The position numbers and the translations under genes were made by a program. From positions 128,001 through 192,000 of IMG/VR virus record IMGVR_UViG_3300033076_001145: a DNA stretch of 64,000 nucleotides; one strand, given 5' to 3'. Shown here one piece after another: positions 24,100-63,656 of the stretch. This DNA comes from a virus. Taxonomy: Duplodnaviria; Caudoviricetes. Below the pieces are notes generated by a model. It saw nothing but the letters and a program-made list of their open reading frames with translations, was not told where the DNA came from and did not search any database. How positions within the stretch are numbered: position 1 is the first letter of the stretch; every line of letters starts with the position of its first letter.

Positions 24100-24360
24100 T
24101 CAAATATATGTATCCTCAATCCCCTCAATAAATCGTAACAATCGTTGTCTTTCACCTTCAGTTAATTCCCCATCACTTTCGATTTCTTCTCTTAACATTT
24201 CCAAACTCTGTAATGAACTTTGAATACATCCTGCCAATTCGTCATCAACATTTTGAATGTATTTACCATACATTTCATAGTTAGACTTTTCCCCTTCAGA
24301 GATTACTTTATTCACAATCTTTATTAATTCAGTTTCAGTAAGTTTTATTGTTTTACTCAT
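24100..24360 (-). CDS. Small protein with 'IKLTE.EL' N-terminal leader
   Basis: MSKTIKLTETELIKIV; TATTTAT upstream. Confidence 0.65.
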   Translation of the reverse strand: MSKTIKLTETELIKIVNKVISEGEKSNYEMYGKYIQNVDDELAGCIQSSLQSLEMLREEIESDGELTEGERQRLLRFIEGIEDTYI

Positions 24361-24390
24361 AATAAAATAAATATCATGTAAAATAAAAAA

Positions 24391-24481
24391 ACCCTCACTT
24401 GGATGGTAGTCTCAACCTTCCTTCAAAAGGGTTAATGTAAAATTTGATATTTGTAACTTTCTTTTTGAGGGTGTGCTCAAC
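24391..24481 (+). CRISPR. Mini-array A: partial repeat 24391-24416, 29-nt spacer, degenerate 36-nt repeat 24446-24481
   Basis: Similar to consensus GGTGTTTGTGACCTTCATTTGGAGGGTATTCTCAAC. Confidence 0.6.
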
Positions 24482-24802
24482 CCATTTACCAATAAATTCT
24501 TTAGAGTCATTGTGTCCCATAGAATAGAAAGAAGAAATTTCTTTGATTAAACCATCACCGATAAAACACGAACCGTCGTCTTTATCATATCTAATTTGAG
24601 CATATTTGTCACTTTTTGAATTGACAAAATAAATTCTATTTTTTTCTTTAATCTGAATGAAGTCCTGATTGTTTAAGTATTCAAATACTGAATTATCTAA
24701 TTCTGACTCTGACTGAGGAATTGTGTCTCCACCACCTTTTTTAATAATTCTTTTTACTAGACTTAGTAAATCTGATTCTGTCAATCTAATTACCTTTTTC
24801 AT
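24395..24802 (-). CDS. FSYLD/WVEN paralog with LTESDL leader; C-terminus encoded by CRISPR-like repeat and spacer
   Basis: VFEYLNNQDFIQI...YAQIRYD...WVEHTLKKKVTN. Confidence 0.75.
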   Translation of the reverse strand: MKKVIRLTESDLLSLVKRIIKKGGGDTIPQSESELDNSVFEYLNNQDFIQIKEKNRIYFVNSKSDKYAQIRYDKDDGSCFIGDGLIKEISSFYSMGHNDSKEFIGKWVEHTLKKKVTNIKFYINPFEGRLRLPSK

Positions 24803-24859
24803 GTTATTATAAATACAGATAAAAACAAAAAACCCCTCAACAAGGAGGGGTTTAAGTTA

Positions 24860-25873
24860 TTATTTTACAATCTTCGTGGTATATAATTTACCTGAGTCAT
24901 CATTAATTAGAATGACATAGGTTCCCTGACTTAGATTTTCGGAATTAATTGTCATCATGTTTGTTGTGTATTTGTTTTGATAAACACATCGTCCATCAAC
25001 TGACATAATCTTAATGTTTCCGTTATTAGATGGTGTAACCACATTAATATTATCCATCACAGGATTTGGACATACCTTAACATTATTGGTCATTGTTTCT
25101 TCAACACCAACAGTATAACTATCAACAACACTCAATGTCCATTCAGTCATAATACCACCAGGATACCAACCTGTTGAGTCAATGGTGAATGTTAAACAAG
25201 TATCAGCAAAACATCCATCAAATGAATAAGCCCATACACAGATTTGATATGTTCCAACACCTCCATAAGTTGTTGTTGGGAATGCAACATTTGCTGAGTC
25301 ACCATTACCAAAATTCCAAGTATATCCAATGCAGTTTGAAGATTGGTTAATCAAAAAGATTACATTATCTTCGATTACAACTGAATCAGAAGAAACAAAA
25401 GACATATCCAAGTATGGGGTCGTTTCAAGTTGTCCGTCACAGTTATTATCAATACCATCACACATTTCCCATGCTCCGGGATATGTATTTGGGTTAAAAG
25501 CATCACAATCATATTCATCATTCCAACCATCATTATCACTATCAATACCAGTAACCAAATCAATTGAGTATTCATTAACTGCTCCGAAGATAACAATACC
25601 ACCATCGCATTGGGTCATCCCAACACAATTGGTCGCACATAGATTAACATAAACACTATTACCAACCACAGGAACCGATGTTGTGTAAACACCTGATGGG
25701 TCGGAAGTAAAAACCAATTCACCTGTTGTTTGGTTTAAGGAGTCAATATACATACCTGTAACGGTATATGGACAATTTGTATCACCAATAACGGTCAAGT
25801 TAATTGGGAATTGAGAAAACACATTAAGTGTTAGGATGCTCATAAGAGCGAAAAGAAAAGTTTTTAGTTTCAT
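24860..25873 (-). CDS. Secreted protein with Cys/Asp metal-binding motif, PKD-like domain and T9SS type A CTD
   Basis: Signal peptide; DCDAFNPNTYPGAWEMCDGIDNNCDG; WNFGNG; VCPNPV...DGR...LSQGTYVI...TTKIVK. Confidence 0.8.
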   Translation of the reverse strand: MKLKTFLFALMSILTLNVFSQFPINLTVIGDTNCPYTVTGMYIDSLNQTTGELVFTSDPSGVYTTSVPVVGNSVYVNLCATNCVGMTQCDGGIVIFGAVNEYSIDLVTGIDSDNDGWNDEYDCDAFNPNTYPGAWEMCDGIDNNCDGQLETTPYLDMSFVSSDSVVIEDNVIFLINQSSNCIGYTWNFGNGDSANVAFPTTTYGGVGTYQICVWAYSFDGCFADTCLTFTIDSTGWYPGGIMTEWTLSVVDSYTVGVEETMTNNVKVCPNPVMDNINVVTPSNNGNIKIMSVDGRCVYQNKYTTNMMTINSENLSQGTYVILINDDSGKLYTTKIVK

Positions 25874-25981
25874 AATTTGTTTTTTTAAAGTTTAGACAAA
25901 GGTAATACAAATTAAGTTGATTGTAAAATAAAAACCCCCACATTTTCTGTGAGGGTTTAAGTGAAACCTTGTTATTATTTT

Positions 25982-26776
25982 TTAGAATTTTGTTCCGCAG
26001 TGTGGACAGAATTTATGATTATCTTTCTTTCTCTTACTTCCACAATTTGTGCAATAAAGAACATTCACCTCTTTTGCTTCAACTGGCTTTTCTGACATTG
26101 GCATTAGTCTCCAAGTTGAATATGACGATGGGAAAGAATTAAAATCCATATTCACTGATGTAAATTCCTGATTTGAACTTCCACCTTTTTCAACACGACC
26201 TGTTTCTTTAAACCTGTCAGTTGATAATGACTTCTTTAGATTTTGAGAAGTGTTATAATCAACATTATTATTTAAGTTATAGGATGTGTTGGTGAAATAA
26301 CTATTATTTCCCGATGTTAAGTTTGTTGTGGTGTTATAGAGTTTAATATTACCACCAGTAGTATTGTAACCACCATAATATCCATAATCACCGTGTTCAT
26401 TTGTAAAAGTTATACTTCCACCATAAGGATTTTCTTCATAGAACTCAACCTCAACAACTCCGTTGTTTTTGATTGCCTCTTGAACCTCTTTGGATTTGGC
26501 ATTGACCTCATAGGTTTCAAACTTGAACTTTCTTGCTTCGTCCAAATACCTTTCAAGAAAAACCCTTTGACCTGGTCTTAATACAACTCCACCACCACCG
26601 ATGTAGTTTCCGTTAATTTTAAGTTTTGCTAAAACTGAATTTTGTTGGGGGTTGAAGATTTCAACTTCAAATTCATCCCCATCTTTTAGATAAACGACAC
26701 TTCCATTTTGTTTTAGTCGTTGTTTCCCTACTGTAATGAAAGCAGTAGGATTCTTTTTAAATGATTTGTAATACAT
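25982..26776 (-). CDS. Hypothetical protein with C-terminal zinc ribbon
   Basis: CTNCG...FCPHCGTKF. Confidence 0.7.
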   Translation of the reverse strand: MYYKSFKKNPTAFITVGKQRLKQNGSVVYLKDGDEFEVEIFNPQQNSVLAKLKINGNYIGGGGVVLRPGQRVFLERYLDEARKFKFETYEVNAKSKEVQEAIKNNGVVEVEFYEENPYGGSITFTNEHGDYGYYGGYNTTGGNIKLYNTTTNLTSGNNSYFTNTSYNLNNNVDYNTSQNLKKSLSTDRFKETGRVEKGGSSNQEFTSVNMDFNSFPSSYSTWRLMPMSEKPVEAKEVNVLYCTNCGSKRKKDNHKFCPHCGTKF

Positions 26777-26888
26777 TTTTTTACCTTATTTTATTGTTTA
26801 TGTTTATTGAACCCCACTTCGTTGGTATTTCTCCAACTCAACTGTCTCAAAGGACAGGTGGACCTCAGCAACAAGGTTTCATTAATAA

Positions 26889-27239
26889 TTATAAGGTAAT
26901 TTGTTTTTGTGTAAAGATTAATTGGGGGGTATTCTCAACCATCAGCTCCTTTGTTGGAAATGATATCGGGGTATTTGTAACCTTCATTTGGGTGGTATTC
27001 TCAACCCATCGTCCAATAACTTTTTCAGAATCAGAGCGTTGTAAAGAAAAGTAGGAATAAATTTCGTTAGTTAAATTAAAATCAATAAAACACCAACCAT
27101 CATCTTTATCAAATCTTATTCGAGCGTATTTATCATTCTCTGAATTTACAAAACAAATTTTATCATTACCCATATCAATCTGAATGAAGTCCTGACTATC
27201 CAAATAAGAAAATATTACTCTTTCTAAATGTTTGTCCAT
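26889..27239 (-). CDS. FSYLD/WVEN paralog; C-terminus encoded by repeat, spacer and second repeat
   Basis: MDKHLERVIFSYLDSQDF...WVENTTQMKVTNT-PISFPTKELM-VENTPQ. Confidence 0.8.
   Translation of the reverse strand: MDKHLERVIFSYLDSQDFIQIDMGNDKICFVNSENDKYARIRFDKDDGWCFIDFNLTNEIYSYFSLQRSDSEKVIGRWVENTTQMKVTNTPISFPTKELMVENTPQLIFTQKQITL
26920..27005 (+). CRISPR. Mini-array B: partial repeat ending 26939, 30-nt spacer 26940-26969, repeat 26970-27005
   Basis: GGTATTTGTAACCTTCATTTGGGTGGTATTCTCAAC. Confidence 0.75.
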
Positions 27240-27253
27240 GATTATAAATATGA

Positions 27254-27550
27254 TTAATAACCAACAATTGGACTAGCAACCTCCACATTAATAGATTCAA
27301 TTCCGAGTTTATCTTCAATCCATTTATTGATTACACTAATGGAATCCCCATAATCTAAAGAAAAGAATTTGCTGACTTCTTCGGCCAAATCATAGTGTAT
27401 TGTGCACCATCGGTCTTTTGGGAGGTATTTAATCTGAGCAAATTCATCATCTTCTGAATTAACAAAATATATCCTATACTTCATTTTAATTACAACAAAG
27501 TCCTGTCCATCCAAATAAGAAAATATTACTCGTTCTAAATGTTTGTCCAT
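27254..27550 (-). CDS. FSYLD paralog without a recognisable DNA repeat
   Basis: MDKHLERVIFSYLDGQDF...FAQIKY...WIEDKL. Confidence 0.8.
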   Translation of the reverse strand: MDKHLERVIFSYLDGQDFVVIKMKYRIYFVNSEDDEFAQIKYLPKDRWCTIHYDLAEEVSKFFSLDYGDSISVINKWIEDKLGIESINVEVASPIVGY

Positions 27551-27570
27551 GATTATAAATACATTAGTTA

Positions 27571-27714
27571 GGTATTCTCAACAGAGCAGTGGAAACGTTT
27601 TCAGAACTATAGGTGTTTGTGACCTTCATTTGGAGGGTATTCTCAACAAGAGATGAATAGCGAATACCTTCCCGCTTGGGTGTTTGTGACCTTCATTTGG
27701 AGGGTATTCTCAAC
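27571..27714 (+). CRISPR. Mini-array C: 12-nt partial repeat, 29-nt spacer, repeat 27612-27647, 31-nt spacer, identical repeat 27679-27714
   Basis: Two identical 36-nt repeats GGTGTTTGTGACCTTCATTTGGAGGGTATTCTCAAC with unrelated spacers. Confidence 0.85.
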
Positions 27715-27951
27715 CCATTTACCAATAACTTGTTCAGAATCAGAGCTTTGCAAAGAAAAGAAAGAAGAAATTTCTTTAACTAAATTAGTATGAATAAAAC
27801 ACCATCCATCATCTTCGTCATATCTAATTTGAGCGTATTCGTCACCTTCTGAACTAACAAAAAAAATTTTATCATTACCCATATCAATCTGAATGAAGTC
27901 TTGGCTATCCAAATAAGAAAATATTACTCGTTCTAAATCTTTGTCCATCAT
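27643..27951 (-). CDS. FSYLD/WVEN paralog; stop codon supplied by the second repeat
   Basis: ...WVENTLQMKVTNT-QAGRYSLFISC*. Confidence 0.8.
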   Translation of the reverse strand: MMDKDLERVIFSYLDSQDFIQIDMGNDKIFFVSSEGDEYAQIRYDEDDGWCFIHTNLVKEISSFFSLQSSDSEQVIGKWVENTLQMKVTNTQAGRYSLFISC

Positions 27952-28466
27952 AACTTAATCCCAGTATTATATATGGTTTCCCAATTATTTTTCTCACAAT
28001 AATCCAAAAAGTCCTTTGGTGAATATCTATATGACTCCTCAATCCCATATACCCATGAAACAAACTCAGAGCAATACATCTTATCCTGTTCATGGTTCAA
28101 TGGTTTTTTATTCCACTTACCAGTTAATAATTCAATCGGTTGTTTGATAATTAATCCCTCAAAGTCATAAGCCGTTAATCCAACTTTGCTCATGGCTTTA
28201 ACCGCAATTTTCTTTTCAGCAATTACCTTTGGTCTTCTTTGGATGATGAAGTTATATTGGTATTCTTTAAGCCAGTTTTCAAATGGTTTAACATTAACTC
28301 CATTATCCTGAGCATCAATGATATATGGTTCACCCCATATCCAAATGAAAAGAGCTGTGTGATTTATTTCAGACTTTGTTGCCCATCTTATGGCTCTACT
28401 CAACCAACTTTTTCCACGACAATGTAACACATCACCGGTTTTTAATTCATCTATATTCAAACTCAT
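27948..28466 (-). CDS. Permuted papain-like (YiiX/YaeF, NlpC/P60) amidase
   Basis: LKTGDVL, HTAL, YDF, MYCSEFV. Confidence 0.8.
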   Translation of the reverse strand: MSLNIDELKTGDVLHCRGKSWLSRAIRWATKSEINHTALFIWIWGEPYIIDAQDNGVNVKPFENWLKEYQYNFIIQRRPKVIAEKKIAVKAMSKVGLTAYDFEGLIIKQPIELLTGKWNKKPLNHEQDKMYCSEFVSWVYGIEESYRYSPKDFLDYCEKNNWETIYNTGIKL

Positions 28467-28548
28467 AATGATAAATATTGGAATATATAATAAAAAAGTC
28501 TTTCCATTTATTCAAACATAATATATTTATTTATTAAACAATTAAATT

Positions 28549-29160
28549 TTGGAAATTTCATCAGAAGTTATAGTTGCGTTTATTACAGGTGTAGTTGGGC
28601 CAACATCTATCATGTTTTTAAAACATTACCTAACCGCAAAGAAAAAGAAACCAGATTTGGTTCATGAGACCTTAAAGGTTAGCGAACTTGTCAATTCAAA
28701 GATTGAACACATTAAAGAAGAATTCAATGCCGATAGAGTATGGATAACTCAATTCCATAATGGTGGGAACTTCTATCCAACAGGAAAATCAATGGCAAAG
28801 TTCAGTATCATTTATGAAACAGTTCATCCCGGTGTTAATTCAATTCAATCAAACTTCCATAACATTCCAGTTAATTTGTTTTCAAAGTCAATCAATGAAT
28901 TATTACAAAATGATATAATTGAAATCCCTGATTTTAAAGATGAAAAAATTTCCACATTTGGTTTAAAATATGTCGCAGAAGAGAACGGATGTAAGTCAGG
29001 TTACCTTTTCGCAATTAAAACAATTGATGGAAGATTTATTGGAACCTTAGGTTTGGACTATACAAAGAGAAAGACAAACTTAGATATGGAATCAATTAAT
29101 CATTTACAAGTCCACGCATCTTCTTTGGGTGGAGTTTTAATGACTCACTTAAATCAATAA
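28549..29160 (+). CDS. N-terminal TM + GAF-like domain protein (possibly holin-related)
   Basis: One TM; ADRVWITQFHNG...FIGTLGLDY GAF-like pattern. Confidence 0.55.
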   Translation: MEISSEVIVAFITGVVGPTSIMFLKHYLTAKKKKPDLVHETLKVSELVNSKIEHIKEEFNADRVWITQFHNGGNFYPTGKSMAKFSIIYETVHPGVNSIQSNFHNIPVNLFSKSINELLQNDIIEIPDFKDEKISTFGLKYVAEENGCKSGYLFAIKTIDGRFIGTLGLDYTKRKTNLDMESINHLQVHASSLGGVLMTHLNQ

Positions 29161-29166
29161 GATTAA

Positions 29167-29520
29167 TTAGAAACTCTTTTTCCACTTTAATAAGTAGAGA
29201 CCTCTTTCTTTGTTGAGAGGTTCAAAACTTATTCTAAAGTTGTCGTTTAACTGAGCATAAACAGGATAAATTGGAAATTTCCATCCTTCGGTTTCTATAT
29301 GGAATCCCGCCATTCCAACAGGACTATTTTTAATTTTATCTATAAAACTTTTTGGAGTCTCCTCTTTACCGAAATTAACTTTAAGTTGGGTTTTAAAATC
29401 GTCAGGGATTTGAATAGTTGAAATTTTATTAATAGGTCCCTTATCAGTTATTTGTTCTTCAATAACTCGTTTAACAATCTTAACCAAATCTGATTCTGTC
29501 AATTTAATAACCTTTTTCAT
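29167..29520 (-). CDS. Protein with LTESDL leader
   Basis: MKKVIKLTESDLVKIVKRVIEEQ. Confidence 0.7.
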   Translation of the reverse strand: MKKVIKLTESDLVKIVKRVIEEQITDKGPINKISTIQIPDDFKTQLKVNFGKEETPKSFIDKIKNSPVGMAGFHIETEGWKFPIYPVYAQLNDNFRISFEPLNKERGLYLLKWKKSF

Positions 29521-29589
29521 ATTAAATAAATATATCAATGTTTTTCTTTTTTATTCCATAAATTTTATATCTTAGCCAAAATTATAACA

Positions 29590-30255
29590 ATGGAACTAAA
29601 CTATCCCAACTTAACGGAAGACCAAAAATCAAAGATTGACAAGTTCGTTTCTGACTTGGAAAAGAAATGTGCTGAAAACAATGTTGAGTTGTTTCTTCCC
29701 AACACACCTGGCGTTCAATACCCAGGTTTGGACACCCAAACCAATGGTTATTTTGATTCAAGAAAACCACTTCTTGCTTGTGCAACAGGTAAGGAACTTG
29801 ATAAGTGGTTGTTAATCTTAATTCACGAGTCATCACATATGGACCAGTTTTTAGAAAAGGTTTCAGTATTTGATGAGTCAATTGGATTAGATGAAACATT
29901 TCAATGGATTGGTGGTCTTGAAACTCCTGACTTTGACAAGATTGATAGAGAAATCACATCAGGTATTGCCGTTGAGGTTGATTGTGAGAAAAGAACCGTT
30001 GAGAAGATTAAAGAATACGGATTGGAGTTTGTGGTTGGGATTGATGAATACATTCAAAAATCAAACGCATATGCTCTCTTTTACCTATGGATGAGAAAGA
30101 ACAGAAGTTGGTATAAGATTGGATTTGAGCCATACAATGTTAAATCCATTTATTCCAAGATGCCAAAAACATTTGATGTTGATTATTCAACATTGACAGA
30201 AGATATGACTGAAGCATTTGACGAGTTGTTAGTAATGTCGGATGGGGTTAAATAA
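29590..30255 (+). CDS. HExxH metallopeptidase-like protein
   Basis: LIHESSH...EVDCE. Confidence 0.6.
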   Translation: MELNYPNLTEDQKSKIDKFVSDLEKKCAENNVELFLPNTPGVQYPGLDTQTNGYFDSRKPLLACATGKELDKWLLILIHESSHMDQFLEKVSVFDESIGLDETFQWIGGLETPDFDKIDREITSGIAVEVDCEKRTVEKIKEYGLEFVVGIDEYIQKSNAYALFYLWMRKNRSWYKIGFEPYNVKSIYSKMPKTFDVDYSTLTEDMTEAFDELLVMSDGVK

Positions 30256-30302
30256 AAAACCCCATCCTTTAGGGATAGGGTAAATCTCTTTTTTAGATTT
30301 GA

Positions 30303-30656
30303 TTACTTGGTGTAAGTTCTTAGACAATGTGCCGCCCAAGCCGCCGCTCCAAGAAAGATTGGCATCAATAGACCTGCTCCACCGAACATTGCAATATGAA
30401 CCGCAACCGCTCCTGACATTACAGATGAAAGAACCAACGCTCCATAAACAGATGTTCTTGGGATACAAAGGGCAATTACACCAGCAACTTCCATAACTCC
30501 AACAAGTGCCATGTAAGGTAACATGTTCATTGCAGTAAAGTTAGTGGTCATAGCCTCGCTTCCCATAATCTTTGACAATCCGCCCATTCCGAGCATAAAG
30601 GTTACGATTACTGTAAGCAACCAACCTAAGTTTTTAAGTGTTAAATAATTTTTCAT
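30303..30656 (-). CDS. DoxX-family membrane protein
   Basis: GLSKI, GVMEVAG, PRT..GA, GAVAVH; 4 TMs. Confidence 0.8.
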   Translation of the reverse strand: MKNYLTLKNLGWLLTVIVTFMLGMGGLSKIMGSEAMTTNFTAMNMLPYMALVGVMEVAGVIALCIPRTSVYGALVLSSVMSGAVAVHIAMFGGAGLLMPIFLGAAAWAAHCLRTYTK

Positions 30657-30700
30657 ATTCCAAGTATAGGATATGAACTTTACAATGTCAATTGATTTTT

Positions 30701-30787
30701 ATTTGGAGGGTATTATCAACGGATTGAAAAATTGCCTTTGCTCAATGCCATGGTGTTTGTGACCTTCATTTGTAAGGTATTCTCAAC
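30701..30787 (+). CRISPR. Mini-array D: 20-nt partial repeat, 31-nt spacer, repeat 30752-30787
   Basis: GGTGTTTGTGACCTTCATTTGTAAGGTATTCTCAAC. Confidence 0.8.
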
Positions 30788-31012
30788 CCACCTACTGATA
30801 ACTTGTTCAGAATCAGAGCGTTGCAAAGAAAAGTAATAAGAAATTTCTTTAATTAAATCCAAACCAATATAACACAAACCATCATCATATCTAATTTGAG
30901 CAAATTCATCATTCTCTGAATAGGCAAAATAGATACTATCATATTTTTTAATCTGAATAAAGTCCTGACTATCCAAATAAGAAAATAATACTCTTTCAAA
31001 ATCTTTGTACAT
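30716..31012 (-). CDS. FSYLD/WVEN paralog
   Basis: ...WVENTLQMKVTNT-MALSKGNFSIR*. Confidence 0.8.
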   Translation of the reverse strand: MYKDFERVLFSYLDSQDFIQIKKYDSIYFAYSENDEFAQIRYDDGLCYIGLDLIKEISYYFSLQRSDSEQVISRWVENTLQMKVTNTMALSKGNFSIR

Positions 31013-31025
31013 GATTATAAATATA

Positions 31026-31355
31026 TTAGTTGGGTATTCTCAACCACTTGTCAATATTCATATACGCATCGGTGGTTTTTGTAACTTTCATTTTTAAGGT
31101 ATTCTCAACCCACCTACTGATGACTCTTTGGGATTCGTCTCGTCCTAAATTAAAGAAAGAAGAAATTTCTCTATTTAAATCGATATTAATAAAACAAACA
31201 CCTCTATCTTCATCATATCTAATTTGAGCAAGGTCGTCACTTTCTGAATTAATAAAGAATAAACTTGTGTCATTACCTGTAATAATAAAATCCTGATTGT
31301 CAAGATACTTAAATATTACTTTATCAAATTGTGATTCGGTTATAAGGTATTTCAT
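31026..31355 (-). CDS. FSYLD/WVEN paralog with ITESQ leader
   Basis: MKYLITESQ...WVENTLKMKVTKT-TDAYMNIDKW-LRIPN*. Confidence 0.8.
   Translation of the reverse strand: MKYLITESQFDKVIFKYLDNQDFIITGNDTSLFFINSESDDLAQIRYDEDRGVCFINIDLNREISSFFNLGRDESQRVISRWVENTLKMKVTKTTDAYMNIDKWLRIPN
31032..31109 (+). CRISPR. Mini-array E: partial repeat 31032-31044, 29-nt spacer, repeat 31074-31109
   Basis: GGTTTTTGTAACTTTCATTTTTAAGGTATTCTCAAC. Confidence 0.7.
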
Positions 31356-31367
31356 ATAAGATAAATA

Positions 31368-31685
31368 TTAATAAGGAACCATTAATATGGGTACCTCATT
31401 TCTTAAATAACTTTGAACAACCATTACATCACTTATTTTAAATTTGTGTTTAATCCACAAACCTATAATTTTTTGAGAATCTTCTTTAGATATAGAAAAG
31501 AAAGAAGAGACTTCCTTACACAAATTATCAGACATCCCAACCCAAGGGATATCATAATCAAATCTAATTTGAGCATATTCATCACCTTCTGAATTAACGA
31601 AGTATATTTCCTCCTCCCCATCAATCTGAATGAAGTCCTGACTATCTAAATAAGAAAATATTACTCTTTCTAAATCTTTGTCCAT
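31368..31685 (-). CDS. FSYLD paralog (repeat decayed or absent)
   Basis: MDKDLERVIFSYLDSQDFIQI...WIKHKF...ILMVPY. Confidence 0.8.
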   Translation of the reverse strand: MDKDLERVIFSYLDSQDFIQIDGEEEIYFVNSEGDEYAQIRFDYDIPWVGMSDNLCKEVSSFFSISKEDSQKIIGLWIKHKFKISDVMVVQSYLRNEVPILMVPY

Positions 31686-32767: not shown

Positions 32768-33799
32768 TTATTTAATAATTCTTGTGGTATAAACCTTACC
32801 TGAGTCATCGGTCATAACAATTACATATGAACCATTACTCAATAGATTACCATCAATCTGAATTTGTTTTTGGTTGAAGTTCTGACTAAACACAACCTTA
32901 CCATCAACTGACATAATCTTTACATTAGTATTATTAGATGGCGCAGAAATGTTAATTACCTCACCGATTGGATTTGGCCAAACCTTAATGTTGTTGGTCA
33001 ATACCTCAACACCTGTTGTATAATCAGGCACAATATTCAAAGTATATTCTGACATAATTCCACCAGGGAACCATCCTGTTGAGTCAATTGTGAATGTCAA
33101 ACAAGAGTCAGTCATACATCCATTAGGTGAAAAAGCATACAAACAAGGTGTATATGTCCCAGGTGAATCGTAGATAAATGATGTATATAACGATAGGCTA
33201 TCTACACCGCTCGCCAATCCCCAGTCCCATCCCCAGAAATTTGCGCCAGTCGTTTCACAAACAACATAGATTGTGTTTGGTTCAGATACCAATGAGTCAG
33301 GAACAAAATACATACTGATTGTTGGTGGGGTGTTCAATACTCCATCGCAGTTATTATCAACACCATCACAAGCCTCGAGAGCACCGGGGTAGGTAAATGG
33401 GTCATAATCGTTACAGTCATTACCTCCAGATTCAATTGATAGGTATCCATCATCATCCATATCATCAAAAATAGGCATTACAATATCAAATGTGGTAACC
33501 GCACCAGGTGTTACAATACCACCGATACATTGTGCCGTTCCCTGACAATCAATCGCACATATTGAAACATATACATCGGTACTATCAATAGGTGGCGCCG
33601 AAGCAATCCAAACCCCATTTGGACTATAAGAAAACATCAAAGGTCCTGTCCAAGTACTATCATCCAATGAGTAATCCCCAACTACGGTAACCGGACAATT
33701 TGGATTTTCACCAACAACATAAACATTGATTGGGAATTGAGAGAACACATTAAGTGTTAGAATGCTCAATAGAGCAAAAAGAAAAGTTTTTAATTTCAT
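32768..33799 (-). CDS. Paralog of 24860-25873: secreted protein with T9SS type A CTD
   Basis: Near-identical signal peptide; DCNDYDPFTYPGALEACDGVDNNCDG; VWPNPI...TTRIIK. Confidence 0.8.
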   Translation of the reverse strand: MKLKTFLFALLSILTLNVFSQFPINVYVVGENPNCPVTVVGDYSLDDSTWTGPLMFSYSPNGVWIASAPPIDSTDVYVSICAIDCQGTAQCIGGIVTPGAVTTFDIVMPIFDDMDDDGYLSIESGGNDCNDYDPFTYPGALEACDGVDNNCDGVLNTPPTISMYFVPDSLVSEPNTIYVVCETTGANFWGWDWGLASGVDSLSLYTSFIYDSPGTYTPCLYAFSPNGCMTDSCLTFTIDSTGWFPGGIMSEYTLNIVPDYTTGVEVLTNNIKVWPNPIGEVINISAPSNNTNVKIMSVDGKVVFSQNFNQKQIQIDGNLLSNGSYVIVMTDDSGKVYTTRIIK

Positions 33800-34351: not shown

Positions 34352-34546
34352 AACAAACCATCTACGCTAACCGTAGTTGTAGATTTTACTGATGGTTGGT
34401 TCCCCATCACCTGTTATGTGTGCACCATAGAGCAGGGTCCATCACAGTATACCTTGGGTCATTTTACACTTCATTTGTGGTAGCTACTCCACGGTGAAGC
34501 CAAGGTCTCTTTCAACGGTGCTAATCCGTCTTCTGTAAGGTTTGTT
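34352..34546 (-). ncRNA. Candidate ~195-nt structured RNA
   Basis: Terminal helix AACAAACC/GGTTTGTT, several internal hairpins; lies between tRNA-Tyr and a terminator. Confidence 0.55.
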
Positions 34547-55093: not shown

Positions 55094-55606
55094 TTACTCG
55101 ACAATAAAATAATATCCTATCTTATTTCCGATTTCACTATTAAGTATTTCGTCAACTATATCTTTAATTTCGAGTCTAACTTCCCAATATGCATCACTAT
55201 GATTTAAAACATCCTCAATATTCTCGTCTCCATTTCCAATATTAACAACCCCATCAACATAACTTAATTTAACATATACATCTGAATTTTCCATGTCAAT
55301 ATCAACAATATCAATTTCAAAAATAAAATCATATGTTCCCATACTGATATTGGGATAGTCACTTGTATCAAATTGTTTTTTGGAATAATCCATAAGTAAC
55401 TTATACGCAACAGTGTCTCCCAAGAATTCTCTTAATAACCCTAACAACTCTTTATACTTAGGTCCGAATCTTTTGATGTTAAACATCTTTAGGTGTATAT
55501 CATCAATACTTGGGTCTTCACCAGAACTTATTTGGTCTTTCCAAATAATGTTGAATATCTCAGATAATGAGTTATTGCGCTGCGACTCTGTGATGATATA
55601 CCTCAT
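55094..55606 (-). CDS. Protein with ITESQ leader
   Basis: MRYIITESQ. Confidence 0.65.
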   Translation of the reverse strand: MRYIITESQRNNSLSEIFNIIWKDQISSGEDPSIDDIHLKMFNIKRFGPKYKELLGLLREFLGDTVAYKLLMDYSKKQFDTSDYPNISMGTYDFIFEIDIVDIDMENSDVYVKLSYVDGVVNIGNGDENIEDVLNHSDAYWEVRLEIKDIVDEILNSEIGNKIGYYFIVE

Positions 55607-56571
55607 AACTTTGTTGTAACCACCGATTCATGGTCCACATAAAATGAACCCCTTGGATTTGATGGGAATTGATTAACAGGAGTATCAACACATTTCATCC
55701 CAACAACTGTTACTGGCATGTATTTTTTAACAAGTAATATTTTCCCACTTGTTGTTACATAGGCCACCAAATTAATATCATTTGGTCTAATGAAAACTCC
55801 ACCTCGAGAATAAACCAAATAACCACCAGGTCTTTGTTTATTTGTAAATTTGGTCCCATCTTCCTCACATGGAGTCTGACTAACCTCTTTAATTGAGCCA
55901 ACAGTTTTAACCTGGATTTTGGCAATTCTTCCATCCTTGGTTCTCATAATAATATCAATTCCAAGTTTGGTGTCGATTGGACTTCCTTCAGTTGCTTGGT
56001 AAATCAATTGCCAACTATATTTTTTTGTTAGTAAATCAATAACATCTTGTTCGCTCTTGTCACCAACTTTTGTATTTCTTGTATTGTTTTCAGTATATCT
56101 ATCAGTATTTGTTTCAAGATATTCTCGATAATATTCCTCAGGATTGTTTTGAATTTTAACAGCAAGTTCTGATAACTTTGATTTGTCATTATTGTCTAAC
56201 ATTTCCAAAATCTCACAAGTATCTTCACCCTCATTTAAAAGTATATCAATAACAAGTCTTGTAATGTCAGAATAATTTGTATTCAACTTATTAAGTCTTG
56301 TCCAATTTCCTTGGGAATCATAAACAAATTCCATGTCAAGAATTGAGTCGAATTGAGAAGGGTCTTTTCCGATTAAAGTTAGAATTTCATTGTATTTCTC
56401 TCTATCCCCATTCCATTTTTGAATGTGGGGTTTAATCATCTCCTCAACAGGTTTTCTAAAAGTCGTTAAAATTTGTCTGTTATTTAATTTGGCAAATAAA
56501 TCCTTCTCACAAAGATTTTCATTCTCTTTGATTACTTTTTTTAACTGACTCTCCGTTAATATTACTTTCAT
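55603..56571 (-). CDS. LTESQ-leader protein with C-terminal PD-(D/E)XK-like nuclease motif
   Basis: GDKSE, GIDIIM, KIQVKT. Confidence 0.55.
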   Translation of the reverse strand: MKVILTESQLKKVIKENENLCEKDLFAKLNNRQILTTFRKPVEEMIKPHIQKWNGDREKYNEILTLIGKDPSQFDSILDMEFVYDSQGNWTRLNKLNTNYSDITRLVIDILLNEGEDTCEILEMLDNNDKSKLSELAVKIQNNPEEYYREYLETNTDRYTENNTRNTKVGDKSEQDVIDLLTKKYSWQLIYQATEGSPIDTKLGIDIIMRTKDGRIAKIQVKTVGSIKEVSQTPCEEDGTKFTNKQRPGGYLVYSRGGVFIRPNDINLVAYVTTSGKILLVKKYMPVTVVGMKCVDTPVNQFPSNPRGSFYVDHESVVTTKL

Positions 56572-56897
56572 TTTCTATCTCGGTAAATTCTAAATGTGGT
56601 AACCCACGGTTTTATGTTATCCTCAACTTCAAAACCGTATTTTTGGATAAACCACTTTTCTATTAAATAGTCAGCATCAGCGTACCTTAATCTGAAATAT
56701 TTTTTCAGTTCCCTAATTACATTATCATGAAACTCAAGTGTTTTCTTTTCAAAATTATATCTGAAATCAAAATAGTCAGGGTCTTTTTGATTAACCAAAA
56801 AGAAATCATACTTATCTTGAAAGGTGTCATAATCATTCCCATCTAAATAGGAAAATACAATTGATTCTATTTCTTTATCGTATGCCATAATTACCAA
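56568..56897 (-). CDS. Distant FSYLD paralog
   Basis: IVFSYLDGNDY...FRY...YF.L...IEKWF. Confidence 0.6.
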   Translation of the reverse strand: MVIMAYDKEIESIVFSYLDGNDYDTFQDKYDFFLVNQKDPDYFDFRYNFEKKTLEFHDNVIRELKKYFRLRYADADYLIEKWFIQKYGFEVEDNIKPWVTTFRIYRDRK

Positions 56898-57262
56898 TCA
56901 ATACCGGGGCCAGATGTCCTTTCATCTATTATTTCATTTTCAATAAAATTAATTTTTGGGAAATGTGTTTTGCTGAGTCTATATCCAATTTCATTTAAAG
57001 TATTTTCAAAATCGTATCTTGGGTAATTTAAATATATATTAACATAAACATTTAATACTTCATCGTTTTCAATCCTGTCAATTTTAATTTTATCTATCGC
57101 CTCAATTTCATGTAATTCATCCATTTCACCCATTCCCCATTCCTCAGATTCATCCCTAATCTTATCCAAAGTAAAATCAACATAATATTGAATAACCTCA
57201 GTTAAATCGTTTTCATAATTCTTTAACTTTTGATGTTGTGACTCTGTGATGATGTATTTCAT
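56891..57262 (-). CDS. Protein with ITESQ leader
   Basis: MKYIITESQ; TATTTAT upstream. Confidence 0.65.
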   Translation of the reverse strand: MKYIITESQHQKLKNYENDLTEVIQYYVDFTLDKIRDESEEWGMGEMDELHEIEAIDKIKIDRIENDEVLNVYVNIYLNYPRYDFENTLNEIGYRLSKTHFPKINFIENEIIDERTSGPGIDW

Positions 57263-62821: not shown

Positions 62822-63656
62822 ATAAACGAAGCCTGAGATTACAGCTTTGATTGAGAACCTTTGGAAGGATTATTGTTTCCCTTCGTATCCACTTCCTTTT
62901 GAGAAGTATTTCTCAGTGACGGTCTTTTAAGTTTACCACTCTTTGAGGTTTGAATTACTCTATCAGTACTCAACTCTTTCCGAGGTTGCCACCCCAGTTC
63001 GTCCTTGCGGGATTAAAGGTCTTTCGTAACAATACACATTGACTTGGGGTCTTTGTGTGCAATGAACGGCTCATTACTATGTAGTCACCTTTCACTCAAA
63101 CCTGATGGACACTTTTCCTTAATGTATTTTAATTAATTGGATAATTTAAATTCCATTTAGTTTTGTGTCGTAGATGTGTCAGAGTAGTGGTCCACCGTAA
63201 GCTCCGTTTCCTTTTGAGAAACGAAATACTAAACTACTCCGTGAAGTGTCCCCACCTCCATATTCCAAGATTACTTCATAAAGAGACCTTGGTAGGTCTG
63301 ACTTTAGGGGTAGTAGCGACACCACTCGTTCTCCACCTTACCTTTCGGTTTTAAGTCCTCTATCATATTGGGACCCGCAATAGTGTGATTGGATAATCAC
63401 ATTTCTTACAGAGTTCCTATGGGTTATTCTTATTACTCTTCCGAGTTCAACCTGACAATCTACTTTGCCAGGTCACCCTACCATTTTCCCTACGAAGTTA
63501 TCCTCGGTACCGAAGGTTTGGTGATATCCCACTTGTGTACTTGAGTTCAATTTCCCTTACGGGATTTCAAACCGCAGTCTCCTCAACACGGGGGAGACCA
63601 CTTTATCCTACTTTCGTAGTTTATTTAAGGACCATACACGGCCCATTATCGTTTAT
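62822..63656 (-). ncRNA. Candidate giant (~835 nt) structured RNA, GOLLD-like in size and context
   Basis: No credible ORF; terminal helix ATAAACGA/TCGTTTAT; many GNRA-capped hairpins on the minus strand; promoters and boxA upstream, terminator downstream. Confidence 0.7.

Follow-up and report, generated by a model that had tools for sequence, protein, structure and literature searches.

CRISPR-like repeat-spacer units at the coding ends of a small gene family in a putative Bacteroidota jumbo phage

The closest described systems are the type VI-B (Cas13b) CRISPR arrays in Flavobacterium. In F. columnare, the VI-B array lacks cas1 and is filled in trans by the type II-C Cas1-Cas2, despite the different leaders and repeats of the two loci (Hoikkala et al. 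2021, PMC8092290). Both host and phage DNA are taken up, about half of the acquisitions come from phage, and the GTTGT end of the repeat is leader-distal in both the II-C and the VI-B arrays (PMC8092290). Here we describe similar repeat-spacer units that form the 3′ ends of a family of small genes in the virus record IMGVR_UViG_3300033076_001145. The window, the whole stretch analysed, is 64,000 nucleotides (nt) long and covers bases 128,001–192,000 of this single 208,634-bp contig, whose CheckV completeness is 71%. The contig has about 32% GC, 28 tRNA genes, a GOLLD RNA and a freshwater-1 RNA. Some of its proteins have C-terminal ends that, judged by eye, resemble sorting signals of the type IX secretion system (T9SS) of Bacteroidota. 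We read the source virus as a freshwater (lake) jumbo phage of Bacteroidota.

The units share with the Flavobacterium VI-B arrays a 36-nt repeat with GTTG/CAAC-like ends and a central hairpin, 29–31-nt spacers, the lack of adjacent cas1 and cas2, polarised growth and a degenerate terminal repeat. They differ in that the repeats agree at only 23–25 of 36 positions, most first spacers measure 29 or 31 nt instead of 30 nt, the first repeat is coding with a gene as the "leader", and no cas13b is evident, the contig having no open reading frame (ORF) of 1000 amino acids (aa) or more. The GTTG end of the phage repeat lies on the leader side, the reverse of the published polarity (PMC8092290).

The compact orphan arrays known from huge phages (Al-Shayeb et al. 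2020, PMC7162821), like viral mini-arrays (reviewed in PMC11656645), are also phage-borne, hold 1–5 spacers and come without adaptation genes. They often lack effectors too and are presumed to depend on host Cas proteins (PMC7162821, PMC11656645). The described mini-arrays carry repeats identical to those of the host, and most of their spacers target related viruses (PMC11656645). In contrast, the present repeat was found in no bacterial genome searched, the two spacers tested had no match in IMG/VR, and the array overlaps an ORF and is predicted to be translated. RNA anti-CRISPRs (Racrs), or solitary repeat units, are reportedly non-coding solitary repeats that gain no spacers. The units here lie in ORFs, and their spacers are gained and replaced. 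The likeness to Racrs (Camara-Wilpert et al. 2023, PMC10651486) is that of a many-copy mimic of a CRISPR repeat in a phage without detected cas genes. Off-target or "neo-CRISPR" integration (Nivala, Shipman and Church 2018, Nat Microbiol 3:310; cited in PMC7054753) also duplicates a repeat-like site outside the canonical locus. That was an experimental rarity in Escherichia coli overproducing Cas1-Cas2, whereas the phage site is conserved under selection across a large natural gene family.

Phage proteins with a hypervariable C-terminal segment on a constant scaffold bring to mind another system. Diversity-generating retroelements are a known route to hypervariable C-terminal regions of phage proteins; they rewrite adenine positions by means of a reverse transcriptase and a template repeat. 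The phage units instead insert whole unrelated cassettes of 29–31 nt between direct repeats. Phage-borne orphan arrays, mini-arrays and repeat mimics are already known (PMC7162821, PMC11656645, PMC10651486), as is off-target integration (Nivala 2018, cited in PMC7054753). In the papers searched we found neither the repeat string, in any relevant paper, nor any report on translated or gene-embedded phage CRISPR arrays. Nor did we find there an array in which a gene's coding end serves as the first repeat and that gene stands in for the leader, which gains spacers in a phage without detected cas1, and in which the spacers are translated under selection.

A repeat search showed that five small genes on the minus strand carry, at their 3′ ends, two copies of a 36-nt element spaced 65–67 nt apart (Table 1). 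The expected number of chance matches of the full 36-mer within the window is 0. On the coding strand the repeat reads GTTGAGAATACCCTCCAAATGAAGGTCACAAACACC and translates to VENTLQMKVTNT. It is followed by a unique spacer of 29–31 nt and then by a degenerate repeat. The gene end holds GTTGAGAATACC, with GGTAGATGG upstream of it. Two further units of the same family lie at genome 102,280–102,703 on the opposite strand. The units have the anatomy of CRISPR arrays, turn over from one side, are constrained at the nucleotide level and are filtered through translation.

The initial annotation had noted that the spacer length dictates the reading frame and the tail of each paralog, and all coordinates and frames were confirmed from the sequence. 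After a 29-nt spacer the next repeat is read in the −1 frame as LRIP(SK/N), ending at the TGA in AAATGAAGG or at TAA; paralog 24395 ends in LRLPSK and paralog 31026 in LRIPN. A 31-nt spacer leads to an immediate stop at the TGA of GTTGAG (paralogs 27643 and 30716), and a 30-nt spacer lets the protein read through the next repeat in frame as VENTPQ... (paralog 26889). As was also proposed, the translated spacers lack an in-frame stop: none of the eight spacers of this phage has one (six in the window, two at genome 102,316–102,691), and the spacer at 27583–27611 lies past the stop. The 12-nt stub at 27571–27582 of paralog 27643, after the second, 29-nt spacer, is a repeat copy that had gone unlisted. 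Paralogs 27254 and 31368 indeed carry no DNA repeat. Two ORFs had been named as more distant members; ORF 56568 belongs to the family (hhalign probability 97%, E 2e-11) and ORF 21394 does not (probability 0.2%).

A protein search returned 1041 metagenomic homologs of the family. Among the best 120 of these, the core W[VIL][EDK][ND][TKS] is present in all but one, mostly as WVENTLQMKVTNT; the exception reads WVENVLQMKVTDT. In the same 120 the tails after the core are unrelated. They end in three formats, namely 10–11 residues and a stop, 10 residues followed by LRIP.., or 10 residues followed by VENT..., which are those predicted from the spacer length. Pattern scans of IMG/VR and JGI metagenomes yielded 75 distinct arrays from phage contigs, with 2–6 repeats each and 117 distinct spacers of 28–33 nt. 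The first spacer is 29 nt in 33 arrays, 30 nt in 23 and 31 nt in 13. In the listed arrays, conserved ...IGRW codons or close variants of them stand immediately before the repeat.

The arrays record the direction of their growth. Of those with at least three repeats, 19 of 33 have identical first and second repeats, including 27612–27647 and 27679–27714 of the window. The terminal repeat differs from the preceding one by 10–24 mismatches in 25 of the 33; that its first 12 nt are retained is in part a product of the search pattern. Two loci from different metagenomes (L069 and L070) are identical over about 540 nt, a stretch that takes in the body of the gene, the two full repeats, the distal spacer, a truncated repeat and the gene that follows. 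They differ solely in the gene-proximal spacer, which has 30 nt and an in-frame TAA in one locus and 29 nt in the other; growth is thus polarised, with the gene in the leader position. Orthologs in L092 and L093 share about 97% identity with the gene bodies of window paralog 26889 and the 102.6-kb unit, yet their spacers cannot be aligned. Among homolog pairs with bodies at least 93% identical, about 26 of 39 have unrelated tails, and in two such pairs the bodies are 100% identical.

The duplicated proximal repeats, decayed terminal repeats and proximal turnover are a well-supported signature of Cas1-Cas2 adaptation with the gene body as leader. The idea that the tails are made by CRISPR-style insertion, put forward from the window alone, is borne out by the CRISPR-type repeat, the unique 29–31-nt spacers, the identical repeats around the newest spacer, the degenerate terminal repeats and the polarised turnover. 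Some tails are later kept, as was also suggested: the spacer of paralog 31026 recurs with five substitutions in two related loci (L018 and L021) and unchanged in a third (L050). By general standards for CRISPR arrays, the units have repeats within 23–50 nt, unique spacers of similar length, polarised gain with repeat duplication and a degenerate leader-far repeat. They depart from these standards in two ways. The first repeat codes for protein and a gene body stands where a non-coding, AT-rich leader is expected, and no cas genes were detected in the same genome with the profiles given below.

The repeat is constrained as nucleic acid. Within it the codon GAG is used at 59:4 and ACC at 62:3, and at the 3′ end AAC at 34:2 and ACC at 57:1; at least 95% of the Glu codons further upstream are GAA. 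The family members without a DNA repeat (27254, 31368 and 56568) carry homologous but different peptides, WIEDKLGIESINV, WIKHKFKISDVMV and WFIQKYGFEVEDN. The protein can therefore do without this exact sequence, and a reader of nucleic acid needs it. Both ends of the repeat have fixed non-preferred codons, and the hairpin persists family-wide, unlike what is expected of an accidental, unselected target.

The plus-strand repeat matches the F. columnare CRISPR-2 repeat at 23 of 36 positions and the F. branchiophilum repeat at 25 of 36 (published repeats from PMC5395568, Table 4). It also matches the repeat of a true array in a Flavobacteriaceae metagenome-assembled genome (MAG; locus L006) at 25 of 36 bases. 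None of 100,000 shuffles reached 23–25 identities. The plus-strand repeat ends in GGTG...CAAC, with a hairpin energy of −6.9 kcal/mol. Across 72 distinct repeats, 86% of cells in the central hairpin are paired, compared with 34–54% for slid partners, and C13/G23 co-varies with T13/A23 (Fisher p 0.0014). Of the features of a type VI-B array, the units have the 36-nt repeat, GTTG...CAAC-like ends, a central stem-loop and spacers of about 30 nt. Such arrays also have an adjacent cas13b and are processed into crRNAs of spacer plus 3′ repeat. Judged by its sequence, the element is a type VI-B-like CRISPR repeat of Bacteroidota.

The arrays of L006 (CAZBXQ010000008.1) have 30-nt spacers, a conserved leader-like block of about 100 nt and a degenerate distal repeat. 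Four short arrays with the 36-nt repeat GTTGAGAATACCATCCAAAATGTGGTCGTTCCCAAC, each behind the same block, lie at L006:3520–6402 (G001:C8:35.5–38.4 kb). The arrays stand on both sides of a gene for a TnpB-like protein of 390 aa (NCBIfam guided_TnpB, E 3e-13, which is below the cut-off). This locus is part of a mobile element that also carries genes for a primase, Fic and an SNF2 helicase, and the 19 kb on either side contain no further cas gene. A type V origin, prompted by this TnpB-like gene, was rejected; the TnpB profile had no match in the 71%-complete phage record and the L006 locus is on a mobile element. In L007:4621–4787, at the end of a Bacteroidales MAG contig, a 65-nt repeat unit opens with the core GTTGAGAATACCTTTCAAAT, and its "spacers" are 95% identical to each other. 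By its sequence this appears to be a tandem duplication, not a CRISPR array.

Two longer arrays, with about 6 and 8 repeats, lie in the same phage at genome 105,708–107,058, on the minus strand and 21–22 kb before the window. They belong to a related second repeat family, GTTGTAGATACCTTATGATTTAAGACCTCTTCCACC, with 30-nt spacers and a strict 66-nt period. Four related phage contigs (L043, L048, L054 and L058) bear a repeat variant that translates as VVDTLLFNTSST, in in-frame arrays with 30-nt spacers adjoining members of the VENT family. Therefore several repeat families coexist in these phages.

Translation leaves its mark on the first spacer. In codons 1–5, stops in the translated frame occur in one of 69 distinct first spacers (1.4%), whereas the other five frames give 20.9% (p 3.8e-6). 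For codons 6–10 the frequency is 11.6% against 13.6% in the other frames, which is not significant. Among 101 unique protein tails, one is shorter than 5 aa (p 2e-9) and 14 are 5–9 aa long, as chance predicts. The tail composition is near that of random-frame translation. The test proposed beforehand was whether tails are spacer-length and depleted of stops. The depletion was found in codons 1–5; codons 6–10 have stops at the neutral rate and a composition close to random. Only the first five or so spacer codons are constrained, and this yields a testable structural prediction.

AlphaFold models of two paralogs (pLDDT 91 and 89) show the same small alpha/beta domain, in which VENTL closes the last helix. 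The final beta-strand is modelled from the last two repeat-encoded residues and the first two or three spacer-encoded ones. VENTLQMKVTNT, suspected earlier of being a core element, spans in these models the end of the last helix, the linker and the last strand. We read this as a requirement that a new spacer supply a few fold-completing residues, with the rest of the tail probably largely free. The domain had nothing above threshold in Pfam and no Foldseek match in the PDB with E of 0.001 or less. Homeodomain-like helices (best VIA-align Z 4.7) were judged a common arrangement and set aside. BFVD held only uncharacterised paralogs from one uncultured phage, ESM Atlas features scored an uninformative 0.76, and no informative relative turned up when the region was compared by BLAST with 50,697 deposited phage genomes.

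The spacers look foreign. Their GC content is 0.42 ± 0.09, compared with 0.32 for phage 30-mers (p 1e-25), and none of 136 spacers had a match outside the arrays when the entire phage contig and the fetched loci of relatives (638 kb) were searched by local BLAST. A search with the long arrays of the phage returned matches to gene-body sequence only. If half of the acquisitions were phage-derived, as in F. columnare, finding none among the phage's own spacers (counted as 24) would have a probability of about 3e-5, so the source is biased or self-derived spacers are purged. Profiles of Cas1, Cas2 and TnpB had no match in the 71%-complete record, and neither Cas1 nor Cas9 was found in a 100%-complete relative of 294 kb. 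We infer from this that a host integrase, acting in trans, probably carries out the insertion.

A mechanism can be proposed from these data. In a phage-specific family of about 100 aa, the final 36 nt of the conserved coding stretch would serve as a type VI-B-like CRISPR repeat, with the gene body in the leader position. A Cas1-Cas2-type integrase would insert 29–31 nt of foreign DNA at the gene-proximal repeat and duplicate that repeat. The enzyme would be the host's, working in trans as the II-C Cas1-Cas2 does for the cas1-less VI-B arrays of F. columnare. The spacer-acquisition motif of F. columnare is TAAA, at a distance of five bases. Because the first repeat is coding, each insertion would replace the protein tail, the last 10–16 residues or so. 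The spacer would be read in frame 0, and its length would set the frame of the next repeat (29 nt, LRIPSK or LRIPN and a stop; 31 nt, immediate TGA; 30 nt, read-through). Spacers with a stop in the first five or so codons would be purged by selection because those residues complete the last beta-strand, and the remaining tail would drift.

We favour, with a probability of roughly 0.55, the reading that the arrays are kept for a CRISPR-related role as nucleic acid and that tail variation is a tolerated by-product. The role might be to supply guides for the host CRISPR machinery or to occupy it. Several observations weigh against this reading. The source of the spacers was not found in the phage, its relatives, IMG/VR (two spacers) or genomes of Flavobacteriaceae and Flavobacteriales (11 spacers). 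Exact IMG/VR scans with the newest window spacer and the variable spacer of L070 gave no match, and two window spacers compared by BLAST with 401 Flavobacteriaceae genomes, like nine spacers of a related locus (L044) compared with 401 Flavobacteriales genomes, returned chance matches outside spacers only. An exact 29-mer of the repeat is absent from 185,579 species genomes, and the periodic 12-mer core occurs only in L006, L005 and L007. No bacterial array with an identical repeat was found in the genomes searched, the nearest repeat being that of L006; therefore no cognate host effector or integrase is assigned. The polarity of the repeat, with its GTTG end toward the gene, is unusual. The strand of the hairpin is ambiguous, with 86.2% of cells paired on the plus strand and 83.6% on the minus strand, and the wobble pairs (40 plus, 23 minus) are too weak a guide to assign the strand of action. 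Lastly, the tail departs somewhat from neutrality. It has weak residue preferences, with few charged residues at position 3 and raised hydrophobicity at positions 5 and 8, and 30-nt spacers are rarer in first than in later positions (23 of 73 versus 24 of 45, p 0.02).

These last preferences bear on the strongest alternative, in which the insertion is the same and the protein is what selection acts on, the phage using CRISPR adaptation to make ever-changing C-terminal peptides, for example to escape a host sensor. We regard this as a tentative contender. Translation always covers the first spacer, from which early stops are removed; the tail has weak residue filters, and read-through spacers are under-represented at the first position. 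Very large tail diversity sits on near-identical bodies, repeat-bearing paralogs are counted at 8 per genome (five of them in the window and two at 102 kb), and one of them has an N-terminal leader common to many proteins of the phage. Conservation of the repeat at the nucleotide level is also what such a system would need. On the other hand, stops in codons 6–10 occur at the neutral rate, tails down to 4–6 aa are tolerated, and three end formats coexist (an 11-aa tail, an LRIPSK-type tail of about 16 aa, and read-through). Most of the later spacers fall out of frame and are not translated, the composition is near that of random-frame translation, and the conserved hairpin has no protein-level rationale. 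We found no evidence in the stop and composition data that tail diversity itself is selected. The initial annotation spoke of a possible new protein-diversification route; this stays a possibility and not a finding, for the stop pattern fits completion of the fold and does not show selected tail diversity. We prefer retention for a nucleic-acid role.

A bolder form of the selected-tail idea, which we hold to be unlikely, is that freshwater Bacteroidota jumbo phages have domesticated host spacer integration. A mimic of leader plus repeat would write a random C-terminal peptide at each infection, and the variability would be selected, for instance for sensor evasion.

It is improbable that the units result from neutral neo-CRISPR integration, with a gene end that is merely repeat-like, an accidental target of host Cas1-Cas2 and of no gain to the phage. 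E. coli Cas1-Cas2 is known to integrate off target and to duplicate the site (Nivala et al. 2018, cited in PMC7054753), and the negative Cas1, Cas2 and TnpB profiles in the phage and negative Cas1 and Cas9 in its complete relative would fit. But the target is kept, with non-preferred codons and hairpin, across more than 1000 homologs and the paralogs of the phage, the paralogs without a DNA repeat show that the protein does not need the exact sequence, and a second repeat family is kept in the long arrays of the same phage.

Equally hard to sustain is a swap of 30-nt cassettes without Cas1-Cas2, by an unrecognised phage integrase or by recombination or gene conversion between repeat copies: the integrase is assigned to no gene, the polarity is reversed relative to canonical VI-B and II-C arrays, single-spacer units show replacement and not growth, and the many repeat copies per genome are substrates for recombination, yet recombination cannot create unique sequence of GC 0.42 absent from the phage, the 29–31-nt length, repeat duplication and terminal-repeat decay are the Cas1-Cas2 signature, Cas1 is absent from the complete relative, and in the loci examined the units are accompanied by no other candidate gene.

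If this interpretation is right, CRISPR adaptation acts on phage genomes in nature, inside protein-coding sequence. A lytic phage without detected cas genes would present a working leader-repeat junction to the host integrase, and spacer capture would have a direct read-out in the proteome. The family would offer a natural system for asking what minimal sequence a II-C/VI-B integrase needs, why the polarity is reversed, and whether orphan arrays in phages act as guides, decoys or generators of protein diversity.

Table 1. Paralogs and repeat-spacer units of the family in the window
Feature	Position	Strand	Content
Paralog gene, 135 aa	24395..24802	−	N-terminal MKKVIRLTESDL-type leader; ends in repeat-spacer-repeat unit; tail ...KFYINPFEGRLRLPSK and stop
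Unit	24381..24481	−	Repeat 24446–24481 (8 mismatches to consensus); 29-nt spacer 24417–24445; degenerate terminal repeat 24381–24416
Paralog gene, 116 aa	26889..27239	−	30-nt spacer continues in frame into degenerate repeat, VENTPQLIFTQKQITL and stop
Unit	26904..27005	−	Repeat 26970–27005; 30-nt spacer 26940–26969; degenerate repeat 26904–26939
Paralog, 98 aa	27254..27550	−	No DNA repeat; homologous segment WIEDKLGIESINV, then 9-aa native tail
Paralog gene P0002, 102 aa	27643..27951	−	Tail QAGRYSLFISC; AlphaFold-modelled
Three-repeat mini-array	27571..27714	−	100% identical repeats 27679–27714 and 27612–27647 around newest 31-nt spacer 27648–27678
Mini-array, older part		−	29-nt spacer 27583–27611 and 12-nt repeat stub 27571–27582; both now untranslated
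Paralog gene, 98 aa	30716..31012	−	Tail MALSKGNFSIR
Unit	30685..30787	−	Repeat 30752–30787; 31-nt spacer 30721–30751; degenerate repeat 30685–30720
Paralog gene, 109 aa	31026..31355	−	Tail TDAYMNIDKWLRIPN, ends ...WLRIPN and stop; old spacer common to related phages
Unit	31033..31109	−	Repeat 31074–31109; 29-nt spacer 31045–31073; 12-nt stub 31033–31044 extending into upstream region of next paralog
Paralog, 105 aa	31368..31685	−	No DNA repeat; native 16-aa tail ending ILMVPY
Distant family member	56568..56897	−	No repeat; EKWFIQKYGFEVEDN aligns with GKWVENTLQMKVTNT, then 15-aa native tail

Two paralogous secreted proteins of about 340 aa (24860–25873 and 32768–33799), with T9SS-type tails by eye, bracket the region. 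The 3′ ends of their genes are 72–75% identical and spaced 7,908 nt apart, which suggests a possible old segmental duplication of a block with the paralog clusters. The GOLLD RNA (62830–63241, 326 bits), the freshwater-1 RNA (34384–34446, 76 bits) and the tRNA genes are all on the minus strand.

A similar MK..I.LTES.L helix opens many unrelated ORFs, at window 24100–24360, 24395–24802, 29167–29538, 55603–56571 and 56891–57262 and at genome 102 kb. The N-terminus of the paralog family itself (MKYLITESQ...) is of this type, and the helix could be a shared targeting or packaging signal.

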